DNA from: an uncultured Candidatus Saccharibacteria bacterium
GTDB lineage: Bacteria; Patescibacteriota; Minisyncoccia; Phycocordibacterales; UBA12088
Assembly (NCBI GenBank): GCA_964562615.1
Contig: CAZLUD010000001.1
Coordinates: 257,072 to 321,071 of the forward strand
DNA: 64,000 bases
Direction: 5' to 3'
The notes under the pieces were generated by a model. The model saw nothing but the letters and a program-made list of their open reading frames with translations, searched no databases and was not told the DNA's origin. This document shows positions 4,269-59,275 of this stretch, piece after piece. The translations under genes and the position numbers were made by a program. Each line of letters begins with the position of its first letter. Position 1 is the stretch's first letter.

Positions 4269-4910
4269 ATGTATATTATAGAACGATTGCTTAGTATTCT
4301 ATTCCCCTACTCAGATGAGGTGGCAAACGTGACCACCATGCCGCTTGAAGTGCTCTTTAATAAGATCACCCCCCACGTAATCGAAGATAGCGCTTGTATT
4401 TCCCTTTATTCATATCATGATCCATTGGTACGTGCGCTGGTATATGCGGCAAAGTTTGAAGGCTCAAAAGAAGCAGCATACCGTATCGCCCTACTTATGA
4501 ATGAAGCACTGAAAGAAGTACTGTTTGAAAAACTACTCTTTGAGGGCATTGATACACCATTACTCATACCAGTCCCCCTTGGTAAAGTTCGTATGAAAAC
4601 ACGTGGCTTTAACCAAGCAGAACGTATTGCTCACCGCCTTGCCTTGTTGCTTCCCCAGCTTGGCACCGTGACTACCGGTGTGCTTATTCGTTCTCGTGAC
4701 ACAAAAAAGCAATCGCATATACGCAGTGACGGTGCGCGAGCAGAGAATGTTCGTAAAGCATTTTCAATACCACACCCAGAGCTATTATATGGTAAACATG
4801 TCATACTCATTGATGACGTGGTCTCAACCGGAAGCACTCTCTATGAATGCAGCAAGGTAATAGAGGGCGCTGGAGGTCGACCAGTAGTAGCTATAGCCTT
4901 TGCTCGGTAA
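4269..4910 (+). CDS. comFC: ComF family protein (ComFC-like phosphoribosyltransferase-domain competence protein)
   Basis: C-terminal PRTase motif HVILIDDVVSTGSTL, GFNQAE motif; divergent from pilM. Confidence 0.75.
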   Translation: MYIIERLLSILFPYSDEVANVTTMPLEVLFNKITPHVIEDSACISLYSYHDPLVRALVYAAKFEGSKEAAYRIALLMNEALKEVLFEKLLFEGIDTPLLIPVPLGKVRMKTRGFNQAERIAHRLALLLPQLGTVTTGVLIRSRDTKKQSHIRSDGARAENVRKAFSIPHPELLYGKHVILIDDVVSTGSTLYECSKVIEGAGGRPVVAIAFAR

Positions 4911-6227: not shown

Positions 6228-6437
6228 TCAATCAATTACGTATGGTTTAGGGGTACAGGTATACACAAGAGCTATCCATTTATGTGTGGTGGTGTGGAAA
6301 GAAACTTCATCAAAAATAGTGCATATCACCCCGTCATTGTCAGCGCTATTTCGAATATGTCGCTTGGGAATAGCACAATCAAACGAGTCACTTGATCCAT
6401 GGTATACGTATGCATCATCTAGCTCTGACTGATGCAT
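6228..6437 (-). CDS. Hypothetical small protein (downstream of CDPS)
   Basis: 69 aa ORF 6 nt downstream of CDPS stop; Cys-containing; no recognised domain. Confidence 0.3.
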   Translation of the reverse strand: MHQSELDDAYVYHGSSDSFDCAIPKRHIRNSADNDGVICTIFDEVSFHTTTHKWIALVYTCTPKPYVID

Positions 6438-39882: not shown

Positions 39883-39915
39883 TACACACAAAAGCCCGCA
39901 ACTTGTTGCGGGCTT
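39883..39915. terminator. Bidirectional terminator downstream of fusA
   Basis: aaaagcccgcaac-ttgt-tgcgggctttt. Confidence 0.6.
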
Positions 39916-39935
39916 TTGTGTGTCGTTAGTATTGC

Positions 39936-48206: not shown

Positions 48207-48626
48207 CTACACTGCGCCATCCATAGCGATGTTTGCAAGCTCGTCAGCTTTTGCGTTTTGTTCTCTTCTTATATGCACAAATGACACATGAGCAAATCGC
48301 ACAAGAAGCGCTCGCACTCGTTCGTGTTGCTTTTTTAATCCAGGATCTTTTACTTTATACTCGCCTCTCATTTGCTTAATGATAAGCTCACTATCCATAT
48401 GCACGAGCACATTCTTGCTTTCTTGCTTGTGAGCAATGAGTAACTGGAGTCCCTCTATAAGACCTTCGTATTCAGCGTAATTATTTGTTTGGTGCCCAAT
48501 ATACTTTGCGTGTTCAAAAACGATTTCACCTGCCGAATCTTTTGCCCACACACCAATCCCGGATATGCCAGGATTACCCCTTGCTCCTCCATCCGTATAT
48601 AATTCTATAATTTCTTTCATAGGCAT
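48207..48626 (-). CDS. rnhA: Ribonuclease HI
   Basis: LYTDGGARGNPG...AEYEGLIEGL... Confidence 0.85.
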   Translation of the reverse strand: MPMKEIIELYTDGGARGNPGISGIGVWAKDSAGEIVFEHAKYIGHQTNNYAEYEGLIEGLQLLIAHKQESKNVLVHMDSELIIKQMRGEYKVKDPGLKKQHERVRALLVRFAHVSFVHIRREQNAKADELANIAMDGAV

Positions 48627-48630
48627 GCGT

Positions 48631-48658
48631 GCACTATCGCGATATATCGCGATAGTGC
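48631..48658. repeat. 28-bp perfect palindrome GCACTATCGCGATATATCGCGATAGTGC
   Basis: Self-reverse-complementary; between rnhA start and the yerC-like stop. Confidence 0.9.
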
Positions 48659-48666
48659 CTGTGGGG

Positions 48667-49119
48667 TTATCTTTTATTACGTGGGCGCAGACTCTGCCAC
48701 CTCCCGTTACCTACTACTGGTGGCAATCCTACTCTAAGCGCATACTCAATATTTTTCCATAGTGACTCACTGCGTTTGGCATTACTAAACAATCGTTGCA
48801 ACGATTCAAATCCTCCAGTGGTAATCATTGCTGCATACGTTCGTACCGTAGAATCACTCACGCTCAGTATTTTTGCGATTCTATAGGTAGAATATCCTCT
48901 TACCACCATACCTATAATCGCCAAACGCTTGGCAAGCATAACCCGTTCTGTTGGAGTAAACAAACTAAGTATTACTTGAGATTTTTGTTGCGAAAGTAAT
49001 TCAGCAAATTCTTCAGTGATTTTTTTGTCTGCGTACTCTTGAATATGTTTTTTTGAGACATGTGCCACCCCTCCAATATAGCGATATATCGCTATATTGT
49101 CGTGAAAGTTTTCCACCAT
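48667..49119 (-). CDS. YerC/YecD (TrpR-like) family DNA-binding protein
   Basis: LFTPTERVMLAKRLAII...GYSTYRIAKILSVSDSTVRTY helix-turn-helix. Confidence 0.6.
   Translation of the reverse strand: MVENFHDNIAIYRYIGGVAHVSKKHIQEYADKKITEEFAELLSQQKSQVILSLFTPTERVMLAKRLAIIGMVVRGYSTYRIAKILSVSDSTVRTYAAMITTGGFESLQRLFSNAKRSESLWKNIEYALRVGLPPVVGNGRWQSLRPRNKR
49074..49099. repeat. 26-bp perfect palindrome CAATATAGCGATATATCGCTATATTG (inside the 5' end of the yerC-like gene)
   Basis: Self-reverse-complementary. Confidence 0.9.
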
Positions 49120-49129
49120 ACCTAGCCAA

Positions 49130-49159
49130 TCACACTATCGCGATATATCGCGATAGTGT
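49130..49159. repeat. 30-bp perfect palindrome CACACTATCGCGATATATCGCGATAGTGTG
   Basis: Upstream of the yerC-like gene; near-identical to 48631-48658. Confidence 0.9.
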
Positions 49160-49160
49160 G

Positions 49161-50897
49161 TTACACAGAGAGTGATGAATCATCCATTACAATATCTAAT
49201 ATTCTAATACGCACAGAGGTACGTCCCATAAACGTACCGCTCTCTATGTTTCCCATCACCGTCACTCTCTTACCCGCCTCAGGAAACACCGCAAAGTCTG
49301 TTGGTTTTTTAAAAAATGCTATCGCTTCTCGCTTTGTTCTTTTATCATCAACGCAGACCATGCGCACATGCTCACCGCTTTTACCAAATGATGCTACCTC
49401 TTTAATCTGCACTGGTGTGATTTTTAAATACGGTTTTTTGTTACCTTCCCCAAACGGGCGTAGCGTTTCTAAGCTCTCTAGGAACGAATCTGATATTTCT
49501 GTAAGTGAAACCGTAATGACGTGCGGTGTATCAGCGCTATTTGTTACTTTGGGTATAGTGCGCATCACCGTTACCAGTGCCTCTTCCAAAAAATGAATTT
49601 GTTCGTGAGAAACAGAAAATCCTCCCGAACAATCATGTCCTCCCTTATCTAAAAAATGTTCATGTGCTCGCTCCATAATCTCCATTACATTGTAGCCAAC
49701 AGGAGACCTACATGACCCCTTTATTACAGAACCATCTTCTCGTCCCCACAAAAATACCGGTACTCCGTATTCACCCATGAGCGTATTGGCAACAAGTCCA
49801 AGTAAGGAAGGTTTCCATGATGGGTCACCAAGAACAATGACTCCGTTTATTTCTCTGTGCGCGAGACGCTTTCTCACCTCTTTAACGAGCGACGCCACCA
49901 CCCCCTTTCGTTTGTTATTAAGCAAATCAAGTTCGCGCGCGAGCGTCTCTGCCTCCTGCGCACTCTCGGTCGCAAGTAATCTAAATGCTCGTTCAGGTAC
50001 TCCCATTCTACTTGCTGCATTAATACGTGGGCTAATACCAAACCCAATATCATCCTCAGTGAGTGTTTTTTGATCAATACGCAAACGCTTTAGGAGCGCT
50101 CGAATACCTGGTCGAAATGTTTTTCGCATAACCTGAAGACCGTACCGTGCAAAAGCACGATTCTCTCCGACGAGCGGTACCATATCTGATAATGTTGCTA
50201 TAGCAACCATATCAAGAAGCCATTTCTCCCACCCAACAGGGGCACCTTCGATAGGTCTAAGTGCAATTAGTGCTCTCACTAATTGAAACGCCACACCAGC
50301 GCCGCAGATATCTTTATTTGGATATATATCATCCTTTTGTTTTGGATTAACGAGCGCGATTGCTGCTGGTGGACTCTCTGGCACAACGTGATGATCGGTT
50401 ATTATCACATCAACACCAAGCGCTCGAGCACGGTCCACCTCTTTAGTATCTGTCGATCCACAATCGACGGTAATGATGAGTGTTGCTCCGCTGTCTGCTA
50501 TCTCTTCTATTGCCGGCACATTGAGGCCAAACCCCTCAAGCACTCTATGCGGGGTATAAACTCGAACATGTTCATACTTCACTTTTTTAAAATAATCATG
50601 CAGGATGACACCACCAGGAATGCCGTCAGTATCATAATCGGTATAAATGACGATGTGCTCTTGATTATCCATAGCGGCAAGTATTCGTTTTCCCGCTGTT
50701 TCTATTTGAGAAAGTAAAAATGGATTATGAACATCTCTGTCATAATCAGGATACAAAAATACCTTGCGCGCCTCCTCATCAACGAGCCCTCGGGAAATAA
50801 GTAATCGTTCTATAAGCTCTGGCGTCATAGACGCATATTGTACCACGTGGCTACTCCATGATTTATGTACGGCGTGGTAGTCTATTGCTGTATGCAA
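49161..50897 (-). CDS. recJ: Single-stranded-DNA-specific exonuclease RecJ
   Basis: DHH motifs (DYDTDGIPGG, DHH), DHHA1 C-terminal region. Confidence 0.85.
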   Translation of the reverse strand: MHTAIDYHAVHKSWSSHVVQYASMTPELIERLLISRGLVDEEARKVFLYPDYDRDVHNPFLLSQIETAGKRILAAMDNQEHIVIYTDYDTDGIPGGVILHDYFKKVKYEHVRVYTPHRVLEGFGLNVPAIEEIADSGATLIITVDCGSTDTKEVDRARALGVDVIITDHHVVPESPPAAIALVNPKQKDDIYPNKDICGAGVAFQLVRALIALRPIEGAPVGWEKWLLDMVAIATLSDMVPLVGENRAFARYGLQVMRKTFRPGIRALLKRLRIDQKTLTEDDIGFGISPRINAASRMGVPERAFRLLATESAQEAETLARELDLLNNKRKGVVASLVKEVRKRLAHREINGVIVLGDPSWKPSLLGLVANTLMGEYGVPVFLWGREDGSVIKGSCRSPVGYNVMEIMERAHEHFLDKGGHDCSGGFSVSHEQIHFLEEALVTVMRTIPKVTNSADTPHVITVSLTEISDSFLESLETLRPFGEGNKKPYLKITPVQIKEVASFGKSGEHVRMVCVDDKRTKREAIAFFKKPTDFAVFPEAGKRVTVMGNIESGTFMGRTSVRIRILDIVMDDSSLSV

Positions 50898-51290
50898 GAC
50901 TCAATATTTACAAAAATTTTGAAGGGTGAGGTGCCTGGAGTGATAGTGTGGCAAGATGAAAAAGCCTTTATTCTTATGGATAAATTTCCCTCAGTGGAAG
51001 GGCAAGCACTCGTCATTCCTAAAACTCAGATTGACTATATGTTCTCGCTTGATGAGGAGTTGTACCTGCATCTGTGGCATATTACCAACCACCTTGCGAG
51101 AGCTATGAATGCGTCATTTCCAAACACACGAGTCTGCGTCGTAGTAGAAGGATTTGATGTACCACACGTCCATATACGCGTATATCCTGTACCACACGGG
51201 AAACCACTTATTGCTCACAAAGGTGAGATGGCAGATGATGAGGTAATGGAAAAATTAGCACAAACAATACGATCTTCACTTACGCTATAG
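50892..51290 (+). CDS. HIT-family (histidine triad) protein
   Basis: C-terminal HVHIRVYP triad; start at MQDSIFTKIL. Confidence 0.75.
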   Translation: MQDSIFTKILKGEVPGVIVWQDEKAFILMDKFPSVEGQALVIPKTQIDYMFSLDEELYLHLWHITNHLARAMNASFPNTRVCVVVEGFDVPHVHIRVYPVPHGKPLIAHKGEMADDEVMEKLAQTIRSSLTL

Positions 51291-51762
51291 AAACAACATG
51301 CGGATTTACTACCGTGCGATAATCGGCTGAGGTTATCGCCATCGAAACTCCTCTGTCACCCGCATTAAAAATAATCTCGTTGTTGGTATATAGCGATATA
51401 TCGCTATATACCGGAAGGTTCCATAGTATACCAAAGGGTGGCACCCCACCTGGCTTAACACCGTCGGTAATCTCTCCGACCTCTTCAGGAGTAGCAAACC
51501 GTATATCACTTGCACCGAGTACCTCTTTTAGCTTCTTTGAGTCAAATTTTTTATCTCCCGGAACCACCACCATAACAAAAAACTTTTCCCCCGAGCGCTT
51601 TACTCTCACAATGAGTGCTTTAGCCCCTTGAGACAATGAATACTCTGGACGCACCATTGCCGCCTCTTCGCTGGTGCGAACTGGTTCATGAACAAATTTT
51701 TTATATATTACGCCGCGTGATACCAGCAATGATTCAATAAGGGCTACTGTTTTATGCTCCAT
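51280..51762 (-). CDS. YbaK/ProX-family aminoacyl-tRNA deacylase
   Basis: GAKALIV...GGVPPFG motif. Confidence 0.75.
   Translation of the reverse strand: MEHKTVALIESLLVSRGVIYKKFVHEPVRTSEEAAMVRPEYSLSQGAKALIVRVKRSGEKFFVMVVVPGDKKFDSKKLKEVLGASDIRFATPEEVGEITDGVKPGGVPPFGILWNLPVYSDISLYTNNEIIFNAGDRGVSMAITSADYRTVVNPHVVSIA
51385..51412. repeat. 28-bp perfect palindrome GGTATATAGCGATATATCGCTATATACC (inside the ybaK-like CDS)
   Basis: Self-reverse-complementary; same core as 49074-49099. Confidence 0.9.
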
Positions 51763-57830: not shown

Positions 57831-59054
57831 CTAAATACCTTCAGTGACAGAATATATTGGAGTGATCATTGATACCGCAAAGAATCCGACAACCGCACCG
57901 ACGATAACCATCAAAAATGGTTCGATAATCGTGGACATGTCTTTTGTTTTTTGCTCAACTTCAAGTTCATAAAACTCTGCGACGCGTAAAAGAAGTTCAG
58001 GAAGCTTTCCTGTCTCTTCACCAACGGCAATTAACTCGCCAACGAGTGTTGGGTACAAATCTTCATGCACATGAAATACATCCGCAAGTGGGTTTCCTTT
58101 CTGGATTTTTTCTTTTGCTTCAACTAGCACTGCTCGATAATACGAATGCTGCACCACATCAGCAGTAATCTCGAGTGAATGCACCACATCAACTCCAGCA
58201 GACAATAACGACGAGAGCGTGCGCGCGGTACGTGCAGAGTTAGTCTCTTTGACAAGCTCTTTTATAATAGGCATCTTGAGTAATACGGTTTCAAATATTC
58301 TTCTACCGATGCTGGTTTTAAGTCCGTAATAAAATCCTGCAATAACTCCGATACATAGTATGATCGCGGCGACTGTTTGCTCTTGCATAAAATTACTTGC
58401 CCCGATAATCATTTTTGTTGAGGCAGGAAGCTCTACTCCAAGTTCGGTAAATGTCTGACTGAGGGTAGGTACTACAAAGACCAAAAGGAGTGCGCCGATA
58501 ACAACAAGTGCCGCCATAATGATACCGGGGTAAATCAGCGCCCCTTTGATTTTCTTTTTTAGTCGATAGGTTTGATCCATCTGCTCGCCCACCACAAGGA
58601 GTGAGTTAGATAGCCCACCACTCTCTTCACCGGCACGCACCATAGAAATAACTAGTGATGAAAATACTTTTGGATGTTTTGCTAGCGCTTCATTAAAAGT
58701 GATTCCCTTTTCAATTGATGCCACCAGATCAAGGAGTACCGTCTTGAATCCTGGTTTCTTTGTTTGGCGCTCCATCACCTGAAGAGCGCGTGAGAGGGAC
58801 AGCCCCGCAGAGAGCATGGCGGAAAGATTTTTAGCAAAGTTGATTTTGTCTGTCTCTTTTATTCTTCCAAAGAAACTACTGATAATAGGTATGTGGATAT
58901 TTATAGAACTTCCACCCTTTGTTTCTTCAAATGAAACCACCGTCGCGTTTTCTTTGCGTATATGTTGGTACAACTCAAATCTATCTACCGCCTCAAGCGT
59001 ACCTTCGTACTCCTCCCCTGTATCTCGTTTAGCTTTGTATACAAATGTTGGCAT
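57831..59054 (-). CDS. pilC: Type IV pilus inner-membrane platform protein PilC (GspF family)
   Basis: Two GspF repeats; 407 aa. Confidence 0.85.
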   Translation of the reverse strand: MPTFVYKAKRDTGEEYEGTLEAVDRFELYQHIRKENATVVSFEETKGGSSINIHIPIISSFFGRIKETDKINFAKNLSAMLSAGLSLSRALQVMERQTKKPGFKTVLLDLVASIEKGITFNEALAKHPKVFSSLVISMVRAGEESGGLSNSLLVVGEQMDQTYRLKKKIKGALIYPGIIMAALVVIGALLLVFVVPTLSQTFTELGVELPASTKMIIGASNFMQEQTVAAIILCIGVIAGFYYGLKTSIGRRIFETVLLKMPIIKELVKETNSARTARTLSSLLSAGVDVVHSLEITADVVQHSYYRAVLVEAKEKIQKGNPLADVFHVHEDLYPTLVGELIAVGEETGKLPELLLRVAEFYELEVEQKTKDMSTIIEPFLMVIVGAVVGFFAVSMITPIYSVTEGI

Positions 59055-59164: not shown

Positions 59165-59206
59165 ATATATAAGGACCTTTCGATATATCGAAAGGTCCTT
59201 ATATAT
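59165..59206. repeat. 42-bp perfect palindrome ATATATAAGGACCTTTCGATATATCGAAAGGTCCTTATATAT between pilB and pilC
   Basis: Verified base by base; central CGATATATCG core. Confidence 0.9.
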
Positions 59207-59234
59207 GATGTTTGTATAAAAAAGAAAACGAAAA

Positions 59235-59275
59235 GGCCGCAAGCGCAAGCTTGCGGCCTTTGGTGAGAAATACTC
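59235..59275 (-). terminator. Terminator after pilB
   Basis: ggccgcaagc-gcaa-gcttgcggcc followed by T-run on the minus strand. Confidence 0.5.

Follow-up and report, generated by a model that had tools for sequence, protein, structure and literature searches.

Five perfect palindromes built around the core CGATATATCG lie in a 64,000-nucleotide stretch of DNA (the window) from an uncultured Candidatus Saccharibacteria bacterium (assembly GCA_964562615.1, contig CAZLUD010000001.1, positions 257,072 to 321,071). With a probability of about 0.7, these palindromes are the cognate operators of a TrpR-family helix-turn-helix (HTH) protein encoded at 48667-49068. The evidence is comparative. Palindromes of this kind recur at the start and stop codons of homologous genes picked by protein similarity alone, and their core changes with the lineage of the adjacent protein. 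A preliminary description of this DNA had proposed an autoregulatory operator set for a TrpR-like protein, and the family-wide comparison supports that idea.

Patescibacteria, the Candidate Phyla Radiation (CPR), are mostly uncultured and have very small genomes with few recognizable regulators. To our knowledge, hardly any transcription factor from this group has a known target.

Palindromes with a common core

The five palindromes are the only perfect ones of at least 20 bp in the window, and all contain the CGATATATCG core within a total length of 26-42 bp (Table 1). The core is found five times where 0.05 copies are expected, and none of 100 shuffled windows got to five. Each shuffled window holds between zero and three palindromes of at least 16 bp. 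The four perfect palindromes of the preliminary description are all present and perfect, three of them at exactly the positions given; the one placed at 49130-49159 is off by one and lies at 49131-49160. A fifth, at 59165-59206, had been missed. A separate 16-bp perfect palindrome, AATCGTTGCAACGATT, is located inside the regulator gene at 48791-48806; it bears no relation to the core and is no longer than chance would give.

The arms of the palindromes define three types, A, B and C. The types have only the 10-12 bp core in common, yet every copy is fully symmetric. The two type-A copies share 26 bp (CACTATCGCGATATATCGCGATAGTG), and the type-A 20-mer is a tandem duplication of the 10-bp palindrome TATCGCGATA. 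Four of the five window palindromes lie within 2.8 kb of the regulator gene. Three of these sites, with spacing equal to that in the window, are also found on contig CAYPBQ010000002.1 (locus L012) from a Candidatus Saccharibacteria metagenome-assembled genome (MAG). An Rfam search of the window returned two tRNAs only, with no known RNA family at the palindrome sites.

Table 1. Coordinates of the palindromes, the genes associated with them, and PadR-linked sites at other loci (numbered within each locus)
Feature	Coordinates	Strand	Length	Description
Type-A palindrome	48631-48658		28 bp	GCACTATCG-CGATATATCG-CGATAGTGC; perfect; 8 nt past regulator stop, 4 nt before rnhA ATG
Type-B palindrome	49074-49099		26 bp	CAATATAG-CGATATATCG-CTATATTG; perfect; ends 5 nt upstream of regulator GTG start
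Type-A palindrome	49131-49160		30 bp	Perfect; directly past recJ stop codon; 62 nt upstream of regulator start
Type-B palindrome	51385-51412		28 bp	Perfect; within ybaK/tRNA_edit coding sequence; 95 nt beyond stop of convergent HIT gene
Type-C palindrome	59165-59206		42 bp	Longest copy; ATATATAAGGACCTTT-CGATATATCG-AAAGGTCCTTATATAT; between pilB-like and pilC-like genes; 110 nt upstream of pilC-like start
TrpR-family HTH protein gene	48667-49068	-	133 aa	From probable GTG start; databases call a 150-aa open reading frame (ORF) from ATG 49119
Promoter-like site	49075-49103	-		-35 ACGACA, 17-nt spacer, -10 TATATT; overlaps type-B palindrome; consensus scan
RNase H gene rnhA	48207-48626	-		Pfam RVT_3 and RNase_H; probable regulated target
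ybaK-like gene	51280-51762	-		Pfam tRNA_edit 5.7e-30; hosts palindrome 51385-51412
pilC-like (T2SSF) gene	57831-59054	-		ORF; syntenic homologs carry PF00482; possible regulated target
PadR-linked 20-mer site	L006 4896-4933			
PadR-linked 20-mer site	L018 5071-5092			
PadR-linked 20-mer site	L040 1968-1989			
PadR-linked 20-mer site	L049 938-969			
PadR-linked 20-mer site	L043 3305-3330			
PadR-linked 20-mer site	L019 6835-6854			

The regulator and its family

Homologs of the regulator argue for a shorter protein than the one called in databases. Their own residue 2 aligns with query residue 19, they share a conserved N-terminus (M-[PST]-H-[VI]-S-K-K), and they are approximately 130-145 residues long. 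This alignment makes the in-frame GTG at 49068 the most likely true start. With that start, the type-B palindrome at 49074-49099 would be non-coding and promoter-proximal, and it probably does not lie inside the 5' end of the gene, where it had first been placed.

The protein is assigned by profile matches and a predicted structure to the TrpR family, with the all-helical TrpR fold. Taken alone, the window ORF (48667-49119) gives weak HTH and Trp_repressor matches, with a sub-threshold Pfam score of 21.3 bits against a cut-off of 27. Across the family, Pfam Trp_repressor (PF01371) matches 60 of 61 aligned members with a best E value of 4.5e-13, and precomputed PF01371 assignments are listed on most relatives. 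The family profile also matches the TrpR-like Protein Data Bank (PDB) chains 3kor, 3frw and 3g1c at E values of 3e-7 to 1e-6. The AlphaFold (AF2) model has a pLDDT of 85.7 and seven helices. Its best fold match in a Foldseek search of the PDB is E. coli TrpR (probability 0.98-0.99, TM 0.5-0.68), at an E value of only about 0.15. The top PDB matches together, which are E. coli TrpR and TrpR-like proteins, have probabilities of 0.9-0.99, TM by target of 0.57-0.68 and E values of about 0.15-1.

Scores for the family fall under the curated cut-offs for YerC/YecD and TrpR. The window protein has no match to TIGR02531 (YerC/YecD, which is HisR) at E<=1, and three homologs reach 24-31 bits against a cut-off of 42.2. 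Annotation pipelines label some relatives 'Trp family transcriptional regulator' or YerC.

An exhaustive HMMER search, used because a word-indexed search had returned the query alone, gives a family of 680 cluster representatives at E<=1e-3. All relatives with a named organism are Patescibacteria, for example Saccharibacteria, Kaiserbacteria, Taylorbacteria, Giovannonibacteria, Niyogibacteria, Zambryskibacteria and Minisyncoccia. Conserved features of the family are an N-terminal arm, M-x-[HQK]-V-S-K-K, and a C-terminal tail, G-M-P-P-x-x-G-K-G-R-W. No paralog of the regulator was found within the window.

Pairing of gene and palindromes across the family

The association between gene and palindrome was surveyed at 80 metagenome loci picked by protein similarity alone (pattern L[LF]T[PDE]TEx[VL]ML, 8-sequence alignment), which yielded 64 distinct complete proteins. 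At the start side, 43 of the 64 loci show a perfect palindrome that is 14 bp or longer and whose end lies no more than 45 nt from the start codon. At the stop side, such a palindrome is found within 80 nt past the stop codon at 39. Palindromes are present at both ends in 34 loci, and in 27 the 10-bp core is identical at the two ends. Away from these positions, the same loci have a background of about 0.9% per 50 bp for palindromes of this kind.

Centers of the upstream palindromes fall 7-53 nt (median approximately 22) before the ATG, those of the downstream palindromes 5-86 nt (median approximately 20) beyond the stop codon, and the flanking copies are spaced 421-559 bp from center to center, a distance that would allow either looping or insulation of the regulator gene from transcription next to it. 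The downstream neighboring gene is co-directional at 27 of 55 loci and convergent at the other 28, so the stop-side copy is not simply an operator of the next gene.

The type-B sequence also occurs in other CPR classes. An identical 24-26 bp type-B sequence lies 3-7 nt upstream of the start codons of homologs that are just 35-40% identical, in Patescibacteria, Kaiserbacteria and Parcubacteria MAGs, and two of these loci have a second copy at the stop codon. That non-coding DNA is identical while the adjacent protein has diverged to 38% identity provides strong evidence of function.

One related site lies in a region that has no family gene. In the Saccharibacteria MAG GCA_964459075.1 (locus L136), ATTCATACGATATATCGTATGAAT is located at 6251-6274, flanked by a convergent HSP20 gene and a gene for a hydrolase. 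The region is syntenic and without a family gene, and the sequence is of the same extended type as that at the family genes of L091 and L093. This site suggests that a family member is encoded elsewhere in that genome.

Co-variation of core and protein

Different lineages of the family use different cores. Examples are NCGATATATCGN, TGATATATCA, CGATTAATCG, ATGATTTAAATCAT, ATGATTCGAATCAT and ATGAATCGATTCAT, and further lineage-specific versions are ATGTATTAATACAT, ATGTTTTAAAACAT, AGACTAGTCT, ACAGTTAACTGT and CCAGTATACTGG. Two protein positions vary along with the DNA. Loci whose protein has His at residue 3 carry the GATATATC core in 20 of 25 cases, compared to none of 24 with Gln, Lys or Asn (Fisher 2e-9, shared ancestry ignored). 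Arg or Lys in the recognition helix is associated with YGATnnATCR cores (5e-5, ancestry again ignored). This co-variation indicates that the core tracks the protein at the lineage level; it is not proof of a contact.

Proposed mechanism and targets

In the proposed mechanism, a dimer of the regulator would recognize the central part of each palindrome, corresponding to the roughly 14-30 bp common to the two copies that flank a family gene. The type-B site at 49074-49099 would serve as the primary autoregulatory operator. It covers the spacer and -10 element of the promoter-like site on the same strand as the gene, and its occupancy would turn off the regulator's own transcription. Given this overlap and the median position of family palindromes close to the ATG, autorepression by promoter occlusion, with its classical geometry, is the best-supported mechanism from sequence. 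The regulator transcript would start approximately at the GTG, giving a leaderless-like arrangement. A -10-like hexamer stands at similar distances from the start codon of the regulator (TATATT-N6-GTG, 49068-49080) and of rnhA (GATAGT-N6-ATG, 48626-48640), as well as of rnhA in the related genome L134, which lacks the regulator gene (TATACT-N7-ATG, 4800-4824). Both rnhA and the regulator gene look leaderless, although this is uncertain.

The gene rnhA is likely a second target, since the 48631-48658 copy ends 4 nt before its ATG and is accompanied by the -10-like GATAGT. This type-A palindrome would act as a downstream operator that overlaps the rnhA promoter and places rnhA under the same protein. 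The other type-A copy, at 49131-49160, might be an auxiliary operator or a barrier to read-through. With the protein bound at this bracketing pair of type-A sites, the gene could be isolated from neighboring transcription, or the two sites could come together in a loop of about 450 bp.

For the remaining two copies, a role as further targets or barriers has weaker evidence. Promoter-like hexamers overlap the type-C palindrome on both strands, and the canonical terminator of pilB adjoins it at 59232-59262. The pilC-like gene is a possible target, to which the position of this palindrome is the sole link. No his genes were seen near any window site; the sites adjoin the regulator, rnhA, recJ, ybaK and pilC. 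Likewise, no amino-acid biosynthesis genes were seen next to them.

A more ambitious model is that the gene and its sites form a self-insulating operator-gene-operator module. In each genome, a few dozen cognate palindromes, among them intragenic and convergent-junction sites, would be places where the protein marks or blocks the boundaries of transcription units. Template switching around a core held by selection would both create such sites and extend them where they stand. We regard this model as unlikely. If true, it would describe a protein-programmed boundary or roadblock system whose specificities co-evolve with its sites, and such a system could replace regulatory machinery that is missing from reduced genomes.

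Several observations weigh against the operator reading. In about one third of family loci the start side lacks a perfect palindrome of 14 bp or more, and simple autorepression would not normally involve a second operator right past the stop codon. Only 10-12 bp are common to the A, B and C arm types, compared to the 14-30 bp shared by the copies flanking each family gene; one protein may therefore bind the five window sites unequally. The co-variation statistics take no account of shared ancestry. A GGAGG sequence is oddly placed relative to the predicted GTG start, which makes the leaderless arrangement uncertain. Finally, in 23 of 54 flanking palindromes perfect symmetry continues past the shared part by 3 bp or more in each arm, where 0.8 such palindromes would be expected, and this extra symmetry reaches up to 14 bp. 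Recognition by a protein leaves these symmetric, variable outer arms unexplained.

Symmetry of the outer arms

An alternative explanation for the palindromes is that they are mainly structural. They would form cruciforms or hairpins in the DNA, or else hairpins in both transcripts, that act at the borders of genes as bidirectional terminators, insulators or stabilizers of mRNA ends, and the core would be a structural apex or a secondary protein contact. The symmetry extending past the conserved part, in arms that vary yet stay complementary, fits this explanation. So does a comparison of the orthologous palindromes at L111 and L119, between which two pairs have undergone compensatory change. 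Where arms extend into start codons, stop codons and coding sequence, the opposite arm mirrors them. Single-strand folds are strong (-9 to -18 kcal/mol, z -4.7 to -9.2). Many copies reside directly past stop codons or between convergent genes, and some, such as those at L008 and the extra copy at L070, have the A-run and T-run flanks of bidirectional terminators.

However, structure alone does not account for a sequence core that is kept across CPR classes, or for one that changes with the lineage of the adjacent protein, and we consider it an unlikely primary explanation. Intrinsic termination in particular was rejected as a general account. A scan of 48300-49500 finds no terminator-like site around the three palindromes there, a T-tract (at least five T in six nt) follows only 4 of 38 downstream family palindromes, and the type-C site, flagged on one strand with a weak tail, already has a canonical terminator next to it. 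Canonical GC-rich terminator hairpins with T-tracts are found in the window at 39884-39923 and 59232-59262, so these genomes use ordinary intrinsic terminators alongside the palindromes.

Where an extended palindrome has an isolated mismatch, it is almost always a transition, and on the sense strand these mismatches divide into four G.T and five A.C. This even split points to recent point mutations in DNA-level palindromes. The absence of a G.T bias argues against selection on a hairpin in one RNA strand.

Mutation offers a different origin for the outer arms, one that is compatible with operators. Template switching at quasi-palindromes homogenizes and extends the arms of inverted repeats, and in a single step it can yield perfect hairpins and mimic compensatory change (PMC7202029, PMC8794818, PMC13100816). 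The palindromes described here resemble the products of such mutagenesis in having variable yet symmetric arms that copy start codons, stop codons and coding sequence. Template switching would perfect and lengthen the arms of a quasi-palindrome around a core that selection holds in place. We infer this origin for the outer-arm symmetry; arms shaped by selection for cruciforms or hairpins would look no different.

Very long perfect palindromes are not confined to the regulator family. Others of 38-44 bp are found in CPR loci at L053 4398-4441, L091 5236-5273 and L079 183-224. Their centers are unrelated to the regulator core, and two of them share TTCTTAAGAA. Palindromes of at least 24 bp occur approximately once per 20 kb in these CPR genomes, which seems unusually common. 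A 108-bp perfect palindrome at L134 7043-7150 lies exactly at a contig end and is most likely an assembly artefact.

The ybaK copy and mobile repeats

The palindrome within the ybaK-like gene encodes VYSDISLYT, and its codons replace those of 16 homologs one for one with no insertion or deletion. An ortholog that is 82% identical has a degenerate palindrome in which 8 of 14 pairs match, and one that is 72% identical has none, which argues for a recent site and not an ancient constrained one. From these alignments, the palindrome is best described as a recent, lineage-specific acquisition that was written in at the cost of amino-acid changes. An earlier suggestion that intragenic copies are maintained under coding constraint fails for ybaK. 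A cognate-type palindrome is located at the equivalent pgk/HIT convergent junction of the syntenic locus L070, and this hints that position matters. In the window, the HIT-family gene (50865-51290, + strand) and ybaK (- strand) are convergent and overlap by 11 bp.

The absence of an insertion bears on whether the palindromes could belong to a selfish or domesticated family of repeats, of the REP/REPIN-RAYT or miniature inverted-repeat transposable element (MITE) kind, with the regulator as a partner that mobilizes or spreads them or with the palindrome-gene-palindrome cassette itself mobile. In favor of this reading, the gene stands between repeats of its own and additional copies are scattered elsewhere, an arrangement also seen for RAYT and REP. 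In one syntenic relative the recJ-rnhA junction is a 33-bp gap with no regulator gene, and in another relative an unrelated ORF occupies it. The neighbors of the family gene vary from one part of the family to another; on the other side, the close relatives L111 and L119 keep the same neighbors.

The remaining evidence makes mobility very unlikely. The regulator is a 133-residue HTH protein with no nuclease, HUH, recombinase or other catalytic domain. Arms differ from copy to copy, so the palindromes are not duplicates of a single element. There are few copies: five in the 64-kb window and, outside the gene, five with the 10-bp core among the 38 perfect palindromes in 206 kb of family loci, or about seven if near-cognate sites at L070 and L086 are counted. 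A search of viral contigs found no homolog of the family and a search of plasmids only one partial, weak match, on which grounds a phage or plasmid origin was rejected. Specific versions of the idea were rejected as well. The copies cannot be assigned to a MITE, being 26-42 bp long with no internal sequence, differing arms and no flanking direct repeats. Insertion of a REP or MITE at ybaK is contradicted by the alignment with 16 homologs. Insertion of a cassette into a pre-existing palindrome fails at the empty recJ-rnhA junction of L134, which has no palindrome.

A further alternative is that the palindromes serve site-specific recombination or resolution, in the manner of Xer/dif, invertase or telomere-resolvase sites. 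A perfect dyad with an AT-rich center resembles some recombinase core sites, and paired sites do flank the gene. No recombinase is encoded in the neighborhood, however, and several sites with different arms are present per 64 kb. The flanking copies are each fully symmetric, unlike the hybrid sites of an attL/attR pair. This explanation is extremely improbable. The preliminary description had offered repeat elements and recombination sites as its alternatives, and both fit poorly with an indel-free ybaK copy and a protein that has no transposase or recombinase domain.

Significance

If the palindromes are operators, they represent an ordinary kind of gene switch in organisms with almost no known switches. 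Searches of the literature, made for the motif and for CPR transcription factors that have palindromic motifs, gave no relevant result. On sequence evidence, the regulator is a TrpR-family variant specific to Patescibacteria; its candidate operators are readable and co-vary with the protein, and its operator-gene-operator layout is unusual. A family of 680 cluster representatives would be linked to DNA sites that can be read from sequence, with specificity that shifts between lineages. This yields candidate protein-operator pairs for binding work and a route to CPR regulons, and the lineages form a natural series in which the evolution of TrpR-type recognition can be followed. In addition, the symmetric variable arms and the 28-bp palindrome in a conserved enzyme gene provide a clean case for comparing template switching with selection for structure.

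Comparison with known systems

The closest known systems are E. coli TrpR and HisR (B. subtilis YerC), which belong to PF01371. The TrpR-family proteins HisR/YerC and TrpR have lineage-specific 20-bp palindromes and are frequently autoregulated (PMC9413887). The family described here has the same small, all-helical HTH architecture, a TrpR-like predicted fold and a profile match. The operators of TrpR and HisR are palindromic, about 18-20 bp long, lineage-specific and often located at the regulator's own promoter; here, the flanking copies share a central 14-30 bp. The proteins differ in length, with about 133-150 residues here against fewer than 100-108, and in the conserved N-terminal arm and C-terminal tail found in this family, whose named relatives are all Patescibacteria. 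A gene bracketed on both sides by candidate operators is a further difference. HisR operators lie upstream of genes for histidine biosynthesis or uptake, which is not so for the window sites.

REP/REPIN-RAYT systems are alike in arrangement. They combine a single-copy gene flanked by cognate palindromic repeats, dispersed copies at gene boundaries, and a repeat that is particular to each lineage. In contrast, the proteins studied here have no HUH/Y1 (IS200/IS605-like) transposase domain, and only HTH and TrpR-type domains were found. Their palindromes are perfect, have unrelated outer arms, are present in low copy number, and include an intragenic copy that arose without insertion.

Similar palindromes are also found next to an unrelated regulator family. 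A scan of public genomes with the 20-mer TATMGCGATATATCGCKATA matched 48 stretches, almost all of them palindromic. Just three among about 50 matches are non-palindromic hybrids. One of these, AATATAGCGATATATCGCGATAGT at L047 2264-2293 in a genome related to that of the window, joins a type-B left arm to a type-A right arm approximately 45 nt upstream of a tRNA-Lys gene. Matches outside CPR lie upstream of PadR-family regulators and were excluded as support for the operator reading. These loci come from MAGs of Actinobacteria, Chloroflexi, Armatimonadota, cyanobacteria and Thermoplasmata, and no PadR-like gene is present in the window. The 20-mer TATCGCGATATATCGCGATA is found just upstream of the PadR-family gene, frequently as part of a perfect palindrome that reaches 26-38 bp, and its sharing follows from the design of the scan. 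Many of these regulators have His/Gly-rich N-termini and adjoin genes for ABC-transporter ATPases. Their sequence hallmark, HGYEI...SPSPGxVYPTLQ, identifies a protein unrelated to the TrpR family, and the PadR-type regulators look like an unrelated family that has converged on the same operator.

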